From: Eubacteriales bacterium
GTDB lineage: Bacteria; Bacillota; Clostridia; Oscillospirales; CAG-272
NCBI GenBank assembly: GCA_045656725.1
Contig: JAZORS010000088.1
Coordinates: forward strand, 1 to 31,107
DNA length: 31,107 nt
Direction of reading: 5' to 3'
The position numbers and the translations under genes were made by a program. This document shows, piece by piece, positions 7,588 through 29,110 of this stretch. The notes under the pieces are model-generated. The model was not told the origin of the DNA and searched no databases. It was given only the letters and a program-made list of their open reading frames with translations. Each line of letters begins with the position of its first letter. The first letter of the stretch is position 1.

Positions 7588-7654
7588 CTCCATTCTGTCG
7601 CCAAAGCGACCGCACAAATTACAGATGAATTTTCGGTATCGCTTTGCCACGATT
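7588..7654 (-). promoter_or_regulatory. Candidate 5'-leader motif, copy 1 (prfC)
   Basis: 54/68 aligned positions identical to 18700-18767; ends in the SD in both. Confidence 0.65.
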
Positions 7655-7790
7655 CGGGGTTGGGTACCAAATCGCGAAAATTCGAGGTGTGAACGCATGA
7701 AGCTCCATAGAGATAAACGTTAATTCACGCTAAAACACCTGTGTTTCCGGTATTTGAGATTAGCCCATAATACCCCATTATCAACTATTT

Positions 7791-7819
7791 ATTTTACCAT
7801 AACACACTGTTTTTGTCAA
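7791..7819 (-). promoter_or_regulatory. sigmaA promoter of prfC operon
   Basis: TTGACA-17bp-TAAAAT with extended TG. Confidence 0.8.
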
Positions 7820-7854
7820 TAATTTAGCCAGAGAAAAAGGGGCGCGAAGCAAAA

Positions 7855-8010
7855 GGTGATGTTCTTGACGGAGAATTTGAAAAGTGCCATTAAGTGTGAG
7901 TGTCGCATTTGACCGGTCAAACGCATTACGGGCTCCCAAACTCATATAACGACAGAAAGAGAGAACAAATCGGTTTGTAGCCGAAATGCCCTCTCTTTTT
8001 CTGTTGTTTT
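7855..8010 (+). repeat. Dispersed palindrome module, copy A
   Basis: Homologous to reverse complement of 28909-29072; TTTGACCGGTCAAA at 7908-7921 followed by a long hairpin. Confidence 0.8.
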
Positions 8011-8166
8011 TTAGTTTAGAGTTATGAGGTTATGCTCCACCGTTATGAGCTTGGGTAAACCCAAGCGTTATGATATGATTGCCCATCAAACATTAAACTT
8101 GGCGAAGCCAATCATAACGATACGAAGTATCTCATAACTCATAACTTGCCCTTGGGGCAATCATAG
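8011..8166. repeat. GTTATGA/TCATAAC hairpin array, copy 1
   Basis: GTTATGA at 8021, 8042, 8067; TCATAAC at 8112, 8132, 8139; interspersed mini-hairpins; homologous to 15711-15855. Confidence 0.85.
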
Positions 8167-8167
8167 T

Positions 8168-8201
8168 TTAGCGTGCTTCTCCGTTTCGAGAAGCACGCTA
8201 A
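8168..8201. terminator. Perfect 14-bp hairpin downstream of MATE gene (terminator or 3' stability element)
   Basis: TTAGCGTGCTTCTC-CGTTTC-GAGAAGCACGCTAA; no clear U-tract. Confidence 0.45.
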
Positions 8202-8227
8202 GCCGCGAGCGCCCCTATAAATATTTT

Positions 8228-9598
8228 TCAGTTTGAAAAGCTCATTTGGGAAAATGCCTTTTTCGTTACGTGTCTGACAAAAACAATAGCAAGCACGAGA
8301 GCCACGAGCTCCGCTAACGGGAACGATAGCCAGATCAGGTCGACAATTCCCGTGAGCGAAAGCAAAAATGCCGCGGGAATGAGAACCACGAGCTGTCTTA
8401 TCATACTGAGATACAAGCTGTATATGCTTTTTCCAAGAGCCTGGCAGGTTGAGGAGCAGATAATCGAGATTCCCGCAAACGGGAAACAAATGCTGATCAG
8501 GCGCAACGCCGGTTTTCCAAGCGCGAGCATGGCTTCTCCGGCATTGAAAATCGAAAGAAGCGCGCCGGGGAAAAGCTGGAAAACGAGAAGTCCGAGGATC
8601 ATATACCCAACCGCCAGAGCCATCGAAAGCTTCATTGCGGCAAGTATTCGCTCTTTTTTATTTGCCCCGTAGTTATAAGCGATTATCGGAATCATTCCGT
8701 TGTTAAGACCGAAAACGGGCATAAAGATAAAGCTTTGAAGCTTGAAGTAAACGCCGAAAACGTTAACCGCTTCCGTGGAAAAGGCGTAAAGAATATTGTT
8801 CATGGAAAGCGTCATAAGCGAGCCTATTGCCTGCATAAGAACGCTTGGAATTCCTATTATGAGCATGTCCTTTATAACGCGGAGCTTGGGTATAAAATTC
8901 TTCAAAATCAGCTTGATTTCCTTGTTACAGACAAGGTTAAGCGTGATTCCTATGGTGGCGGAAACCATCTGTCCGATAACGGTGGCGATAGCTGCGCCGG
9001 CAATACCGAGCGCGGGAAGCCCGAACATTCCGAAAATGAGAATGGGGTCAAGAATAATATTGATTACAGCACCCGACAGCTGCGTTACCATACTTAATAT
9101 GGATTTTCCCGTTGATTGAAGCAGGCGCTCCGCGAAAATCTGCACGAAAACACTGACAGCGCCAATAGAGACTATCGAGAGATATTCTACACTGTAAGTA
9201 TAAAGAAGTCCGGCGTCTCCGACCTGCGCCTCAATAAAGGGGCGCACAGCAAAGAGTCCGAAAAACAAAAACGGCAAGTACCCTGCCAAAAGAAGCGTCA
9301 AGCCCTGACCGGCAATAAGGTTTGCCCTCTTAAAATCCTTTTGACCGAGAGCACGCGAGAGAAGCGCGTTCATACCGACCGCAAGACCGACGGCAACCGC
9401 AATTATTAAGTTCTGAATGGGAAAGGCAAAGGTCAGAGCACCCGTTCCTGCAATGTTGTCGTACTTGGCGACAAAAACCGAGTCAACGATATTGTAAAGC
9501 GCCTGCACGAGCATTGATATGATTATGGGCACGGAAATCGAAATGAGGAGCTTCGGCACTCTCTCCGTTCCCATTTTGTTTTCTTTTATATTTTCCAT
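8228..9598 (-). CDS. MATE family efflux transporter
   Basis: 456 aa, ~12 TM; QALYNIVDS, NIILDPILIFG, AGAAIATVIGQ. Confidence 0.93.
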   Translation of the reverse strand: MENIKENKMGTERVPKLLISISVPIIISMLVQALYNIVDSVFVAKYDNIAGTGALTFAFPIQNLIIAVAVGLAVGMNALLSRALGQKDFKRANLIAGQGLTLLLAGYLPFLFFGLFAVRPFIEAQVGDAGLLYTYSVEYLSIVSIGAVSVFVQIFAERLLQSTGKSILSMVTQLSGAVINIILDPILIFGMFGLPALGIAGAAIATVIGQMVSATIGITLNLVCNKEIKLILKNFIPKLRVIKDMLIIGIPSVLMQAIGSLMTLSMNNILYAFSTEAVNVFGVYFKLQSFIFMPVFGLNNGMIPIIAYNYGANKKERILAAMKLSMALAVGYMILGLLVFQLFPGALLSIFNAGEAMLALGKPALRLISICFPFAGISIICSSTCQALGKSIYSLYLSMIRQLVVLIPAAFLLSLTGIVDLIWLSFPLAELVALVLAIVFVRHVTKKAFSQMSFSN

Positions 9599-14173: not shown

Positions 14174-15259
14174 TTAAAATTTAGTGGGCTTGCTCGTCAG
14201 GTATTTTTTAACCATAAGAGCGACCTTAAAGGTTATCGCATGGTCGAAATCTCTTAAATCAAGACCGGTCATTTTTCTTATTTTTTCAAGACGGTAAACG
14301 AGGGTGTTTCTGTGAACGAAAAGCTTTCTTGAAGTTTCGGAAACGTTAAGATTGTTCTCAAAGAAGCTCTGGACCGTCATAAGCGTTTCACGGTCAAAGG
14401 ATTCAAGCGAGCCCTTCTTAAATACTTCTCCGAGGAAAATCTCGCAAAGGGTGGTCGGGAGCTGATAAATAAGGCGACCGATGCCGAGATTTTCATAAGA
14501 TATAACGGGCTTTTCAACGTCAAAAACCTTTCCGACTTCAAGGGAGATTCTTGCTTCCTTGTAAGCTCTTGCGAGGTCTTTGAGGTTTCCGACTATTGAG
14601 GAAATACCGATGAGCACCTTTGCCCCGAATTCTCCCGAAACGGTTTCGTGAAGCTCGTTAGCGAAATTCACAAGAGCCTCCGCGCTGTCAGCGGACTCAA
14701 CCTCTTTCACGATAACGATGTCCTGCTCGCTGATGCTGATAACAAAATCACGTGCCTTGTCGGTAACGATGTTCTGTATAATCTCGTAAGGCGGCGTTGC
14801 GGTTGCGCCCTGGAATTTAACGACAACAACTGCGCGCGCCTCGTCGTTTGAGAAATGAAGCTCGTTAGACTTTATGTAAATGTCGCTGGGGAGTATATTG
14901 TCCAGAATGATGTTTTTTATGAAAGAGCTCTTGTCGTATTTTTCGTCATAAAGCTTTTTGATGTTGGAAAGGGCGATGGCGAGCATTTGAGAGGATTTTT
15001 GCGAGTGTACGTCGCCGCCTTCAACAAAGACGATTGCTTCGTTCTTTCCCTCACCGGAAATGTATCTGTAAGTGTATCCTTCATAAACCATTCCGTCCTT
15101 TGAAAAAGCGAGCTCCTCGCGGATTCGCTGACGCGATTCGCCTATTCTCGAAAGGTCGCTTGAAGCAATTATGATGCCGCTTTCGTCAATGACGCCGACG
15201 GTGCGTCCGATAACCTCTTTCATCTGATGGATTATAGTTTGATAAAGTTTGTTTGACAT
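14174..15259 (-). CDS. CdaR/PucR family transcriptional regulator
   Basis: Sugar-diacid recognition N-terminus, GGDEF-like middle, C-terminal LNVSETSRKLFVHRNTLVYRLEKI HTH; start moved to ATG 15259. Confidence 0.9.
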   Translation of the reverse strand: MSNKLYQTIIHQMKEVIGRTVGVIDESGIIIASSDLSRIGESRQRIREELAFSKDGMVYEGYTYRYISGEGKNEAIVFVEGGDVHSQKSSQMLAIALSNIKKLYDEKYDKSSFIKNIILDNILPSDIYIKSNELHFSNDEARAVVVVKFQGATATPPYEIIQNIVTDKARDFVISISEQDIVIVKEVESADSAEALVNFANELHETVSGEFGAKVLIGISSIVGNLKDLARAYKEARISLEVGKVFDVEKPVISYENLGIGRLIYQLPTTLCEIFLGEVFKKGSLESFDRETLMTVQSFFENNLNVSETSRKLFVHRNTLVYRLEKIRKMTGLDLRDFDHAITFKVALMVKKYLTSKPTKF

Positions 15260-15387
15260 AAATAAGGAACTCCAATCAAAAACAACTTGTTTTGTACTCA
15301 CTGGCGACTGTGCTTAAAGAGAAAAGTGCACGTGAAATCAATATGATCTCACGCGTCTTTTTATGCAATTTGTAAATACTGTACTAT

Positions 15388-15416
15388 ATTTTAAACTATC
15401 TTTTGACATTTTTCAA
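15388..15416 (-). promoter_or_regulatory. Probable promoter of cdaR
   Basis: TTGAAA-17bp-TAAAAT. Confidence 0.55.
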
Positions 15417-15636
15417 TAGTTTTTTCAAAAAAAGTCAAAAAATATACAAAAAAGTTACTACCCCTTTGTGCAATTTGCATTTTGCATAGAAAACTCTACA
15501 AAAACGAACAGAGCAAGAATAAATCCGCTCCGTGAAAGCGGAGATTAAAATAAGAAGCTCCTGCGGCAGAATAGAAGCATCTACCACCGTGTGTCTGCGG
15601 TAGAGGAGTATGAAATTGAATATACCCACCAACATG

Positions 15637-15674
15637 AAAAGGACAGAGAATTTTTACGTTCTCTGTCCTTTTTT
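15637..15674. terminator. Bidirectional intrinsic terminator
   Basis: AAAAGGACAGAGAA-loop-TTCTCTGTCCTTTTTT. Confidence 0.75.
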
Positions 15675-15710
15675 CTTGACAAGCACTGCATTTGTAGACA
15701 CAAATACCTT

Positions 15711-15855
15711 TTTAGTTATGAGTTATAAGGATTGCTTGTGCTCACCGTTATGATGTGATCGCCCGTTTACTTCAAGCTGTGCCGAAGGCACATCATAACT
15801 TGGCGTAGCCAATCATAACTTTAAACTCGCCGTAGGCGATCATAACTGCGTAACT
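15711..15855. repeat. GTTATGA/TCATAAC hairpin array, copy 2
   Basis: GTTATGA at 15715 and 15747; TCATAAC at 15793, 15813, 15840; shares AACTTGGCG(A/T)AGCCAATCATAAC and ACCGTTATGA with 8011-8166. Confidence 0.85.
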
Positions 15856-15914
15856 GCTTTATGGCAGGTACGCCGCGGCAGGAGTTTTTTGGATTGTTCA
15901 AAAGTGTGCCCGCG

Positions 15915-16649
15915 TTAAAGCTCTTTGGCGTAGGAAATTGCCGAAAGCACGTAAAGCGGCGCGGTTTCGCAGCGCAAAATTCTCGGCCCGAGATTGGCAA
16001 GAGAAAGCCCCGCCTCTTTTGCCGCAAGACATTCCTCCGGGGAAAAGCCGCCCTCTGCGCCGATAACGGCGGAAATTGTGCCGGCGCCGCTGTTTTTTTC
16101 AAGAAGCGTTTTCAGCGACTCCGTGCCCTCGCCCTCGTAGCAGAAAAGCGCAAGCTCGCTTTTTGTCGCCTCACTTATTGCCGCTTTGAACGGGAGGGGC
16201 TGTGTCACCGTCGGCACCTTTGCTCTGCCGCACTGCTTTGCGGCCTCCTCTGCAATTTTTGAAAGGCGCGCGTTTTGCTTTTCCGCTTTTTCCGGCTGCG
16301 GCTTTTTGATGCAGCGCGAGGATTCAAACGGAACGATGCGCGAAGCACCCAGCTCAACCGCTTTCTGTATTACAAGTTCAAGCTTGTCGCCCTTTGGATA
16401 AGCAACGAAAAGCGTTATTTCAACAGGGGATTCCGCGCGGCTTTTTGCGCTTGAAAGAATTTCGCATTCGCAGATTTCATCTCTTATACGGGTAAGACGG
16501 CACAGATATTCACAGCCCTCTCCGTCGCAAACGGTTATTTCGTCACCCACTGCCATTCGCAAGGAGCGCGCGATATGACGGGCGCTGTCACCCTTAATTA
16601 CTACCGCACCCTCTGAAAAGTCGGGTGCTTCGGCAAAAAATCTTGGCAT
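15915..16649 (-). CDS. rsmE: 16S rRNA m3U1498 methyltransferase
   Basis: HIARSLRM, KLELVIQKAVELG, IGAEGGFS, LGPRILRCETA; start moved to MPRFF. Confidence 0.94.
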   Translation of the reverse strand: MPRFFAEAPDFSEGAVVIKGDSARHIARSLRMAVGDEITVCDGEGCEYLCRLTRIRDEICECEILSSAKSRAESPVEITLFVAYPKGDKLELVIQKAVELGASRIVPFESSRCIKKPQPEKAEKQNARLSKIAEEAAKQCGRAKVPTVTQPLPFKAAISEATKSELALFCYEGEGTESLKTLLEKNSGAGTISAVIGAEGGFSPEECLAAKEAGLSLANLGPRILRCETAPLYVLSAISYAKEL

Positions 16650-24331: not shown

Positions 24332-24465
24332 GTATTTTTTTCAAAAAAAGATGTTTTTTGTGAATTTTGCCGAAATTTGATAGAAAATTATAAAAATATT
24401 CCGAAAAATTACGCTTTTATACAAGCTAAAAACAATAAATTTGCAACACAAAAGAAAATACTACG

Positions 24466-24550
24466 TGCTTTTGCATATCTCGCACGCGAACCGTATATCG
24501 CATTGTGTAGCAATATATCGCAAATCCCGCAAGAAATTTATATCGCTGCG
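24466..24550. repeat. Half copy of ATATCG hairpin array
   Basis: TATATCGC at 24494, 24514, 24539 separated by small hairpins; TGCTTTTGCAT..CTCGC shared with ~28753. Confidence 0.7.
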
Positions 24551-24667
24551 TGATGCTCTTAACGGAGTATCACGCTTTATGCCGCGGCCTTTTTAACACA
24601 AAAATCTACATTTTATTATATATTATAAAAAGCTTTTCTGTGCGGCTCGCTTTTTGTGGCTTTTGGC

Positions 24668-28652: not shown

Positions 28653-28690
28653 CACCGCGTGTTCTCCCAAACGGAGAACACGCATCGAGA

Positions 28691-28911
28691 TAAATCCCTT
28701 GCTGGATTTTCGATATGTTGCTATCGCAACTCGATATGCCTTCGGCTCGATATGCTTTTGCATTCCTCGCCAAAGGCGAGATATGTCAAAAGCGAGAGGG
28801 ATTTATCTCATATCGAATTGTCGCGAAGCGGCAATATATCGAGCTTGAGCGCAGCGAAAGCATATCGAATTCATCTATCGTGAACATATTTCACGAAAGT
28901 GAATATATCGA
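28691..28911. repeat. TCGATATG/CATATCGA hairpin array
   Basis: TCGATATG at 28710, 28731, 28747; (C/T)ATATCGA at 28809, 28835, 28861, 28904; interspersed hairpins. Confidence 0.88.
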
Positions 28912-29072
28912 CAGAAAGAAAAACAAGAGCAAGAATAGAAGGATTTTTCTCCTTTTATTTTTGCTCTTTCTGCTTGTAATATGGGTTTGGGCTTAGCCCA
29001 TTTGCATTTGACCGGTCAAATGCGATGCTTGCACTTTTGTCAAAGTCAAAATTCTCCGCTAAGGACATCACC
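28909..29072 (-). repeat. Dispersed palindrome module, copy B
   Basis: Perfect 20-bp palindrome GCATTTGACCGGTCAAATGC at 29004-29023; homologous to 7855-8010. Confidence 0.8.
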
Positions 29073-29110
29073 CAATTCGGCGTTCGGCGCGGTTTTTTTG
29101 CGTATTTCAA

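Follow-up and report, generated by a model that had tools for sequence, protein, structure and literature searches.

Weinberg et al. 2010 (PMC2864571) described the Gut-1 RNA motif, found in human gut metagenomes, as an orphan candidate for a non-coding RNA. The Gut-1 model (RF01706) consists of three hairpins separated by the word GUGAAAU and corresponds to one arm of a sister of the array that we describe here; the published description is without the inverse arm, the mobile framework, the position in terminator loops and the neighbouring genes, all of which are present in the family analysed here. In the REP/REPIN/BIME-RAYT systems (Bertels and Rainey 2011, PMC3337134), short extragenic palindromes occur in inverted sets that fold into one long hairpin, and this is also the case for the family described below. 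Published knowledge consists only of the one arm of a sister array and of the general REP/REPIN-RAYT and IS200/IS605 paradigms (PMC2864571, PMC3337134). In our literature searches, we did not find descriptions of the comb architecture and its many words, of the position in the loops of terminators, or of a link with IVP genes or with RAYT-like units of Clostridia, and a search for MITEs in terminator loops returned nothing matching.

Here we analysed contig C88 (31,107 nucleotides, referred to as the window) of a metagenome-assembled genome of 1.64 Mb in 236 contigs, with 44% GC and 92% completeness, which is labelled G000. The window contains an array of words and small hairpins that is part of a larger composite, and the identity of this composite as a non-autonomous modular mobile repeat inserted in a terminator loop is well supported. 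We give even chances to the reading that the array forms the core of one MITE- or REPIN-like copy in a modular mobile family of gut Clostridia, with a RAYT-like nuclease as the mover in trans.

Words, hairpins and the conserved unit

GTTATGA and its complement occur 19 times in the window, compared to 2.7 +/- 1.8 times expected from shuffled sequences (0 of 100 shuffles reached 19), and 11 of the 19 words lie inside two clusters, the F1 arrays at 8011-8166 and 15711-15855. An earlier note on this DNA had described the first cluster as a left arm of GTTATGA and a right arm of TCATAAC words with hairpins in between, and had reported the second cluster as a copy. We confirmed the two arms, with three words each, as well as all the hairpins that had been named, and the copy is real, with a word order at 15715-15846 (++---) that matches the layout of the first cluster. 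The extent that had been assigned, 8011-8166, does delimit a real array, but this is only the core of the repeat. When the four GTTATGA clusters of the genome (two on C88, one each on C119 and C227) were oriented alike, the same framework order was seen around them. The conserved unit is 7856-8200. This composite of 345 bp is gene-less, and its sense strand is the minus strand of the window. From left to right on that strand come a hairpin (H0), the word-hairpin array, a hairpin that resembles a terminator (X) and a 3' module, which ends in half of H0, inverted. The features are listed below by their positions in the window.

7835-7846, minus strand: right arm and U-tract of the MatE terminator, GCGCCCCTTTTT on the sense strand; 7847-7855 is leftover loop
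7856-7947, minus strand: 3' module, with TATATGAGTTTGGGAGCCC, the palindrome TTTGACCGGTCAAA (7908-7921), ATGCGA and the terminal CAAATTCTCCGTCAAGAACATCACC (7856-7880)
7948-8008, minus strand: X, an A-tract, a long hairpin and a T-rich tail (terminator-like); inverted repeat I2
8011-8166, minus strand: word-hairpin array; on the sense strand CTATGA, a hairpin, three GTTATGA words with hairpins, the centre, GGGCAA-TCATA, three TCATAAC words with hairpins and the end TCTAAAC
8021, 8042 and 8067, plus strand: GTTATGA words from the word count
8049-8066: mini-hairpin GCTTGGG-TAAA-CCCAAGC
8099-8111: mini-hairpin TTGGC-GAA-GCCAA
8112, 8132 and 8139, minus strand: GTTATGA words from the word count
8119-8131: mini-hairpin GATAC-GAA-GTATC
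8146-8160: fourth mini-hairpin, TTGCCC-TTG-GGGCAA
8169-8200, minus strand: H0, a 32-nt hairpin TAGCGTG..CACGCTA, with which the composite begins on its left side; the left terminal inverted repeat corresponds to the 5' half of H0
8209-8216, minus strand: left arm of the MatE terminator, AGGGGCGC on the sense strand, complementary to 7839-7846, which precedes the T-run; 8201-8208 is leftover loop
15570-15872, minus strand: second, decayed F1 composite, with the array at 15711-15855, a degenerate H0 and no 3' module
24400-24575, minus strand: partial sister copy with the word GCGATAT, consisting of H0 (24548-24575) and the left arm only; weak match to the Gut-1 model at 24472-24548
28655-29073, plus strand: complete sister composite, word CGATATG/CATATCG, with H0, array, X and 3' module in the same order; fold z = -8.5

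The units of the array are hairpins of 5-7 bp that are closed by a C-G pair and have GNA triloops in most cases; on the sense strand each GTTATGA word is followed by a hairpin of 5-6 bp. Across the family, the closing pair is C-G in 186 of the 200 distinct units made of a perfect hairpin plus TCATAAC (93%). Triloops are present in 149 of these 200 units, with GNA in 104 of the 149 (70%) and GAA in 70. A strict automatic census of arms with a perfect hairpin and the same word returned one arm only, as the criterion was too strict, and a scan of the window for tRNA and tmRNA genes found none.

H0 is conserved with compensatory changes in 18 aligned copies. X is present after the array, and the long copies also have the 3' module, which reads TATATGGGTTTGGGC..GCCC, the palindrome TTTGACnnGTCAAA, ATGCGA and the end CAAATTCTCCGCTAAGAACATCACC, an inverted 5' half of H0; in the composite of the window, the terminal CAAATTCTCCGTCAAGAACATCACC is likewise an inverted copy of this half. 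The module is common to 31 distinct copies and is present in 40 of 63 genomes of the genus. X, which reads AACAGAAAAAGAGAG..CTCTCTTTCTG with an inner CGG..CCG hairpin, is also an independent repeat: standalone copies that are about 90% identical occur at many loci (for example on C187, C207, C116 and C159 of the same genome), and two other families of the order have X as well. At two loci in relatives (L004 and L005), another short repeat, GGGGTTCCCCGAAGCGAAGTATGAGCTTTGGGGGTTC, lies in tandem 3' of F1 composites, in genomes G003 and G017. Two observations concern the gene that lies beyond the 3' end of the composite in the window. One concerns its start, at window 7590-7698: the RF3 proteins of relatives align from residue 35-41 of the 571-aa open reading frame, and therefore prfC probably begins some 110 nt downstream of 7698. 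The other is a TTGACA-17-TAAAAT promoter, which is conserved and lies at about 7800-7835.

Spread of the family and its position in terminator loops

The earlier note had proposed a dispersed REP/BIME-like family and had suggested a genome-wide count of copies. Such a family does exist, mosaic in structure and REP/BIME- or REPIN-like, and further copies were found: at least 10 composites are present in this 1.64-Mb genome, and an exact 20-mer of the array occurs in at least 118 stretches in GTDB species representatives, all of which are MAGs of uncultured gut Clostridia (labelled Candidatus Scatosoma, Eubacteriales, Oscillospiraceae bacterium and similar). There were zero exact matches to array 20-mers in the viral contigs of IMG/VR. 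Among the 24 genomes of the genus that were sampled first, 18 had matches, with several copies each. When 27 copies from 12 genomes were compared, almost no flanking genes were in common, and the copies lie at non-orthologous loci across the genus. A comparison of occupied and empty sites had also been suggested by the note. The spacer from rsmE to PucR, which contains the 15570-15872 copy here, measures 140-250 bp and is without an array in five related genomes. In 22 other genomes no array is present upstream of prfC, but the synteny of that region is not conserved and there is no clean empty site between MatE and prfC. No conspecific pair of an occupied and an empty site was found, and among public sequencing runs the best match contained only 16% of the words searched and consisted of contigs. 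Identity among the copies of this genome is only 74-80%, and the best foreign copy is 84% identical. The copies here look old.

The framework is not restricted to GTTATGA, as at least 10 word subfamilies share the same architecture. Sister words in the same genome are GTGATGT, GTGAAAT/ATGAAATC, CGATATG and ATGAAGTC, and relatives have GTGATAT, ATGAAGC, ATGATGT, ATGAATT and GGTATT. In every array seen, the word of the right arm is that of the left arm in reverse complement. The Gut-1 model matches an ATATCAC array (locus L005) with 56.7 bits, the gathering score being 50, and it has 16 matches in the genome analysed here, 4 of them above the gathering score. Rfam searches, both at the gathering score and at E = 10, returned no family on the F1 arrays (7650-8300 and 15250-15950). 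The GTTATGA array has the Gut-1 layout of three hairpins and a repeated 7-nt word, with GUUAUGA replacing GUGAAAU, and its identity as a word variant of the Gut-1 array is well supported.

The composite at 7856-8200 interrupts the loop of the terminator of the MatE gene, directly after the MatE stop codon, and leaves the arms AGGGGCGC and GCGCCCCTTTTT on its two sides. The same holds for 26 distinct long copies, where the left flank of H0 and the right flank of the 3' end are the two arms of a hairpin with an A-tract, a stem and a T-tract. The longest exact complementary run between the flanks of these copies has a mean of 10.9 nt, compared to 5.8 nt for mismatched pairs of flanks, and a run of at least 7 nt is found in 81% of them (21/26), compared to 26% of the controls. 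Because these flanks are complementary hairpin arms, the family lies at the tips of intrinsic terminators. Sister copies in the same genome also have split terminator flanks, and the decayed composite at 15570-15872 lies between the split hairpin arms 15873-15890 and 15547-15569. H0 starts about 20 nt past the stop codon of the upstream gene. The upstream open reading frame has the same orientation as the element in 64 cases versus 18, compared to 45 versus 41 for the downstream one, and the composite at 7856-8200 points the same way as its upstream gene.

At the 26 long copies there is no consistent target-site duplication of fixed length, and a clear target-site signature was not found. A few short copies (L007, L033, L076 and L113) have a direct repeat of 15-33 nt of the left arm of the terminator. 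We rejected this repeat as a general signature of insertion, as only 2 of 27 short copies exceed the controls. One of these copies, on G058:C317 (L113), lies 3' of a RAYT-like gene; it is a short composite with the word GATGTT between direct repeats of about 33 nt of the flank (AAAATCCATAAAA.CAAGAAAA.CCCC.TGCC), which is much longer than usual target duplications. The terminal inverted repeats of about 22 bp (5' GCGTGATACTCTTAACGGAGTATT compared to the reverse complement of the 3' end, GGTGATGTTCTTAGCGGAGAATT) and the insertion at the tips of hairpins would also fit an ordinary MITE that is moved by a palindrome-preferring DDE transposase, as is the case for IS1397 with REP loops. We regard this as highly improbable, as no duplication of fixed length was seen at the long copies, no longer element with these ends and a DDE gene was found among 82 F1 copies, and the RAYT-like gene discussed below is the one enzyme gene that was observed between ends of this kind.

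In both arms of the array, GNA sits on the strand that reads a hairpin followed by TCATAAC (28 of 50 triloops versus 1 TNC in one arm, and 116 of 143 versus 0 TNC in the other), and the array is thus symmetric in the two-fold manner of the REP pair of a REPIN. C-GNA-G triloops stand out for their stability in DNA, not in RNA. In 18 aligned copies the words are fixed and the stems vary by compensatory double substitutions, such as GC/AT/TA at one stem position and CG/TA at a second one. The single strand of the array folds as a branched rod (z = -10 compared to shuffles) in which the words of the left arm are paired with those of the right arm and the mini-hairpins protrude.

These properties must also be weighed in terms of RNA. 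The array could act as a Gut-1-type non-coding RNA or as a 3'-UTR element, transcribed by read-through into a comb-like rod that stabilises the 3' end of the mRNA, restores termination or binds a protein, with its spread being secondary. Gut-1 was indeed proposed as a non-coding RNA (PMC2864571), and its model covers one arm of the sister arrays. The orientation bias with respect to the upstream gene is strong, the array lies inside a transcribed terminator, the fold is strong and its stems covary, and GUUAUGA is able to pair with itself through G-U pairs on the sense strand only; RNAalifold inflated the number of G-U pairs by this self-pairing. The two-fold symmetry, on the other hand, argues for a role at the level of DNA on both strands and not of one RNA strand, as a single RNA strand would not select GNA on the TCATAAC strand in both arms, and the stability of C-GNA-G triloops is a property of DNA. 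In addition, inspection by eye showed no promoter of its own and the copies have no conserved sequence upstream of H0, a search of public sequencing runs gave no RNA run that contains the region, many units with an IVP gene (see below) have a sigma70 promoter after the array, which places the array outside that mRNA, and the stem mismatches between copies, 13 G-T versus 7 A-C, show no clear strand. For these reasons we think that a primary function as RNA is unlikely.

Candidate enzymes and neighbouring genes

A RAYT-like HUH nuclease is the first candidate enzyme for the array family. A weak Y1_Tnp match led to a RAYT-like gene of 169 aa in relatives, in which both the HUH motif (MPNHIH) and the Tyr motif (YIYENP) are conserved. 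The protein best matches the NCBIfam family 'REP-associated tyrosine transposase' with E 6.6e-18, below the curated cut-off, and its best PDB match is TnpArep of E. coli (4ER8). RAYT-like matches, partly fragments, are present in 11 of 63 genomes of the genus, and RAYT-like units are multi-copy in one MAG. With tblastn and further searching, the gene was not found in the 92%-complete assembly analysed here, and because of this the copies in this genome are probably stranded relics.

A profile of X plus the 3' module (31 copies) matches the DNA directly after the stop codon of the RAYT-like gene at four loci (E 8e-5 to 8e-4), and at one locus, L121, it matches again with its terminal 33 nt about 520 nt further downstream (E 1.3e-4). 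At the same locus, the H0 profile matches the right end of the RAYT-bearing unit in inverted orientation (E 6e-6). Two more metagenome contigs repeat this layout, in which a promoter hairpin is followed by the RAYT-like gene, the 3' module, a variable cargo open reading frame, a terminator, the inverted H0 end and the right arm of the terminator. In genome G006, a unit composed of a hairpin, an array, the RAYT-like gene and the 3' module lies between complementary terminator arms. The homology consists of short profile matches (E 1e-3 to 1e-5) at a handful of loci in two MAGs and two metagenome contigs and is visible to profile searches alone, as blastn of the composites against the RAYT unit gave nothing. 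Of the 11 genomes that have a RAYT-like match, 10 contain the 3' module, compared to 30 of the 52 other genomes; the one-sided hypergeometric p value of about 0.035, computed by hand, overstates this evidence, as the genomes are related. Because the 3' module and H0-type ends recur around RAYT-like genes, the composites look like gene-less derivatives of RAYT units, and they may have arisen as deletion derivatives of units that encode the RAYT-like Y1 HUH nuclease between the same ends.

The trans-acting HUH nuclease that the earlier note had proposed, together with its suggestion that Y1_Tnp or RAYT genes might be flanked by the repeat units, finds its counterpart in the relatives, where RAYT-like Y1 genes have the 3' module of the composite and inverted H0-type ends, but not in this genome, which has no detected RAYT-like gene and only an unflanked IS200. 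The interpretation of the earlier note is supported in part. An array adjoins only a single RAYT-like gene, that of G006, the palindromes that recur in or beside RAYT-like genes are GTAG-tagged and form a separate repeat, unlike the heptamer word-hairpin units, and arrays are much more often found beside 23S_rRNA_IVP genes than beside RAYT-like genes. The RAYT-like genes each have two in-frame, GC-rich, GTAG-tagged palindromes (L098:1442-1465 and 1600-1625; L274:168-195 and 340-366; also in L092 and L100). The two members of a pair are mutually inverted and lie on either side of the HUH motif, and they differ in sequence between genes at the same position; in G061:C227, the stretch between them is deleted. 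Among the 82 F1 copies, we found none in which the array marks one end of a long element and the 3' end lies far away. The array-rich genome G017 has no RAYT-like match and G013 has a short fragment only, both are without IS200, and many array-rich genomes lack a RAYT-like gene as well as IS200.

The genome does contain one intact IS200 tnpA gene (C178:10550-10906). The right end of this element (C178:10300-11097, L021) consists, on the top strand, of the hairpin CCACCGGC-ACG-GCCGGTGG directly followed by (G)TTATGA, the 7-mer of the array, which is a striking coincidence, and the same IS200 subtype with a hairpin and then GTTATGA at its right end is present in G000, G062, G014 and G061. It is conceivable that the F1 arrays are mobilised by the TnpA of a resident IS200 and that a hairpin with GTTATGA mimics the right end of this element. 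The hairpin of IS200, however, has a GC-rich stem of 8 bp, unlike the triloop hairpins of 5-6 bp, only one of the array words matches, and the ends of the composites (H0 and the inverted end) are unlike those of IS200. Moreover, Y1_Tnp is present in 16 of 47 genomes of the genus but not in those richest in arrays, G013 and G017, and the search of this genome for a Y1_Tnp gene with flanking arrays gave only the classical IS200, which has none. Mobilisation by IS200 therefore appears very unlikely to us.

If a RAYT-like nuclease is the mover, it would act in trans and recognise the H0-type hairpin ends on single-stranded DNA, and possibly also the units of a GNA-loop hairpin and a word. It would cut and rejoin these ends in the way that the TnpA of IS200/IS605 and RAYT do, and it would target the tip of an extruded terminator hairpin, where the loop is single-stranded. 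As the inserted rod folds on itself, it would bring the two arms of the terminator back together, so that the insertion may be tolerated. We infer this transposition of the composites from comparisons of sequence, and we give the RAYT-like HUH mechanism roughly even chances.

Genes of the 23S_rRNA_IVP family (PF05635) are multi-copy and present in 56 of 63 genomes of the genus. An array lies directly upstream of both IVP genes of this genome and of about 15 of the 22 that were sampled, each with its own word. The two loci in this genome are C46:5030-5250 and C153:19030-19290 (L263 and L264), with the words ATGAAGTC/GATTTCA and CGATATG, and in both cases the last word of the array lies within about 25 nt of the start codon. 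There is often a sigma70-like promoter between the array and the IVP gene. Units of an array and an IVP gene are often found right after a tRNA gene and its terminator (L244, L248, L249, L251, L254, L256 and L259), and upstream of the IVP genes of L245-L247, L255 and L260 there are plain tandem repeats of a word without hairpins.

It is possible that the words are binding sites for an IVP/Avd-like protein and that the array with the IVP gene is the real functional or mobile unit. Arrays without a gene would then be orphans, which may titrate the protein, and the RAYT-like gene would be one cargo of several. The abundance of PF05635 genes and the arrays upstream of them are in line with this, and subfamilies differ in their words but not in the layout, which would be expected if the variants of the protein each read a word of their own. 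The IVP units, however, are without the H0 and the 3' module that bound the composites, binding to double-stranded DNA alone does not explain the covariation of the hairpins, and we know of no strand-transfer chemistry for the four-helix bundle that these genes encode. We therefore consider it quite unlikely that the words are IVP binding sites and the array with the IVP gene the real unit. A comb that binds protein, like a function as RNA, is not mutually exclusive with mobility.

A more far-reaching proposal, which we regard as speculative and rather unlikely to hold in full, is that the family belongs to an undescribed class of single-stranded DNA transposons that target the tips of hairpins, in terminators and, in relatives, perhaps in rRNA helices. 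The comb of words and GNA hairpins would then be a programmable recognition module in which each word is read by its own partner, a RAYT-like HUH protein for movement and an IVP/Avd-like protein for binding or control. Gut-1, the open reading frames of 23S rRNA intervening sequences and the RAYT clade of Clostridia would in that case be one system.

Comparison with known systems

What is new here are the units in relatives and metagenomes that encode a RAYT-like Y1 HUH protein and bear the 3' module and the ends of the composite. If the mobile-repeat reading is true, the orphan Gut-1 RNA motif obtains a concrete origin and context, and biology of the REP/RAYT type would extend from Proteobacteria to abundant uncultured Clostridia of the gut. 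The element would be one that spares its host, as it lands in the loops of terminators and refolds so that the terminator stem can form again. If the RAYT-like nuclease is the mover, this would be a compact DNA insertion system that is specific for the tips of hairpins and has many natural word variants, and the spread of REP-like repeats could be tested with a defined enzyme and defined substrates. For annotation, many of the long 'intergenic' gaps and of the contig breaks in gut MAGs are accounted for by these inserts of 200-400 bp.

In 23S rRNA, intervening sequences are located at a hairpin tip, as are the inserts described here, and the genes that follow sister arrays belong to the Pfam family (PF05635) of the S23p/IVP gene of these sequences. 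The arrays differ in being located in the terminators of protein-coding and tRNA genes and not in rRNA helices, and the copy at 7856-8200 is gene-less. With IS200/IS605 elements and PATEs the family would share Y1 HUH chemistry on single-stranded DNA hairpins, and it has in common with them the lack of an evident target duplication, the strand or orientation bias and, for one subtype, an end consisting of a hairpin plus GTTATGA. The composites, however, have inverted ends, a symmetric array and no tnpA inside, whereas the left and right ends of IS200 are asymmetric. The 7-mer after the hairpin is all that is common with the resident IS200; the ends differ, and there is no correlation with the presence of IS200.

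The resemblance to REP/REPIN-RAYT systems extends beyond the folding of inverted sets. In both cases the clusters are mosaic, modular and non-autonomous, lie at the 3' ends of genes and are flanked by A- or T-runs, and gene-carrying relatives encode a Y1 HUH protein between inverted hairpin ends. A RAYT gene flanked by its own repeats in the same genome, as is characteristic of REP systems, was not found in G000. A REPIN has one GTAG-tagged REP per arm, whereas the array here has several C-GNA-G hairpins per arm, each with a word of 7-8 nt; where REPs have a conserved GTAG (or CGTC) at the 5' foot of the palindrome, the feet here carry words such as GTTATGA, GTGATGT, GTGAAAT and others. Classical RAYTs are single-copy, whereas the RAYT-like units here look mobile and are multi-copy in one MAG. 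Finally, the family described here differs from the known REP/REPIN-RAYT systems in its word subfamilies, of which there are at least 10, in its precise position in the loops of terminators and in its Clostridia host.
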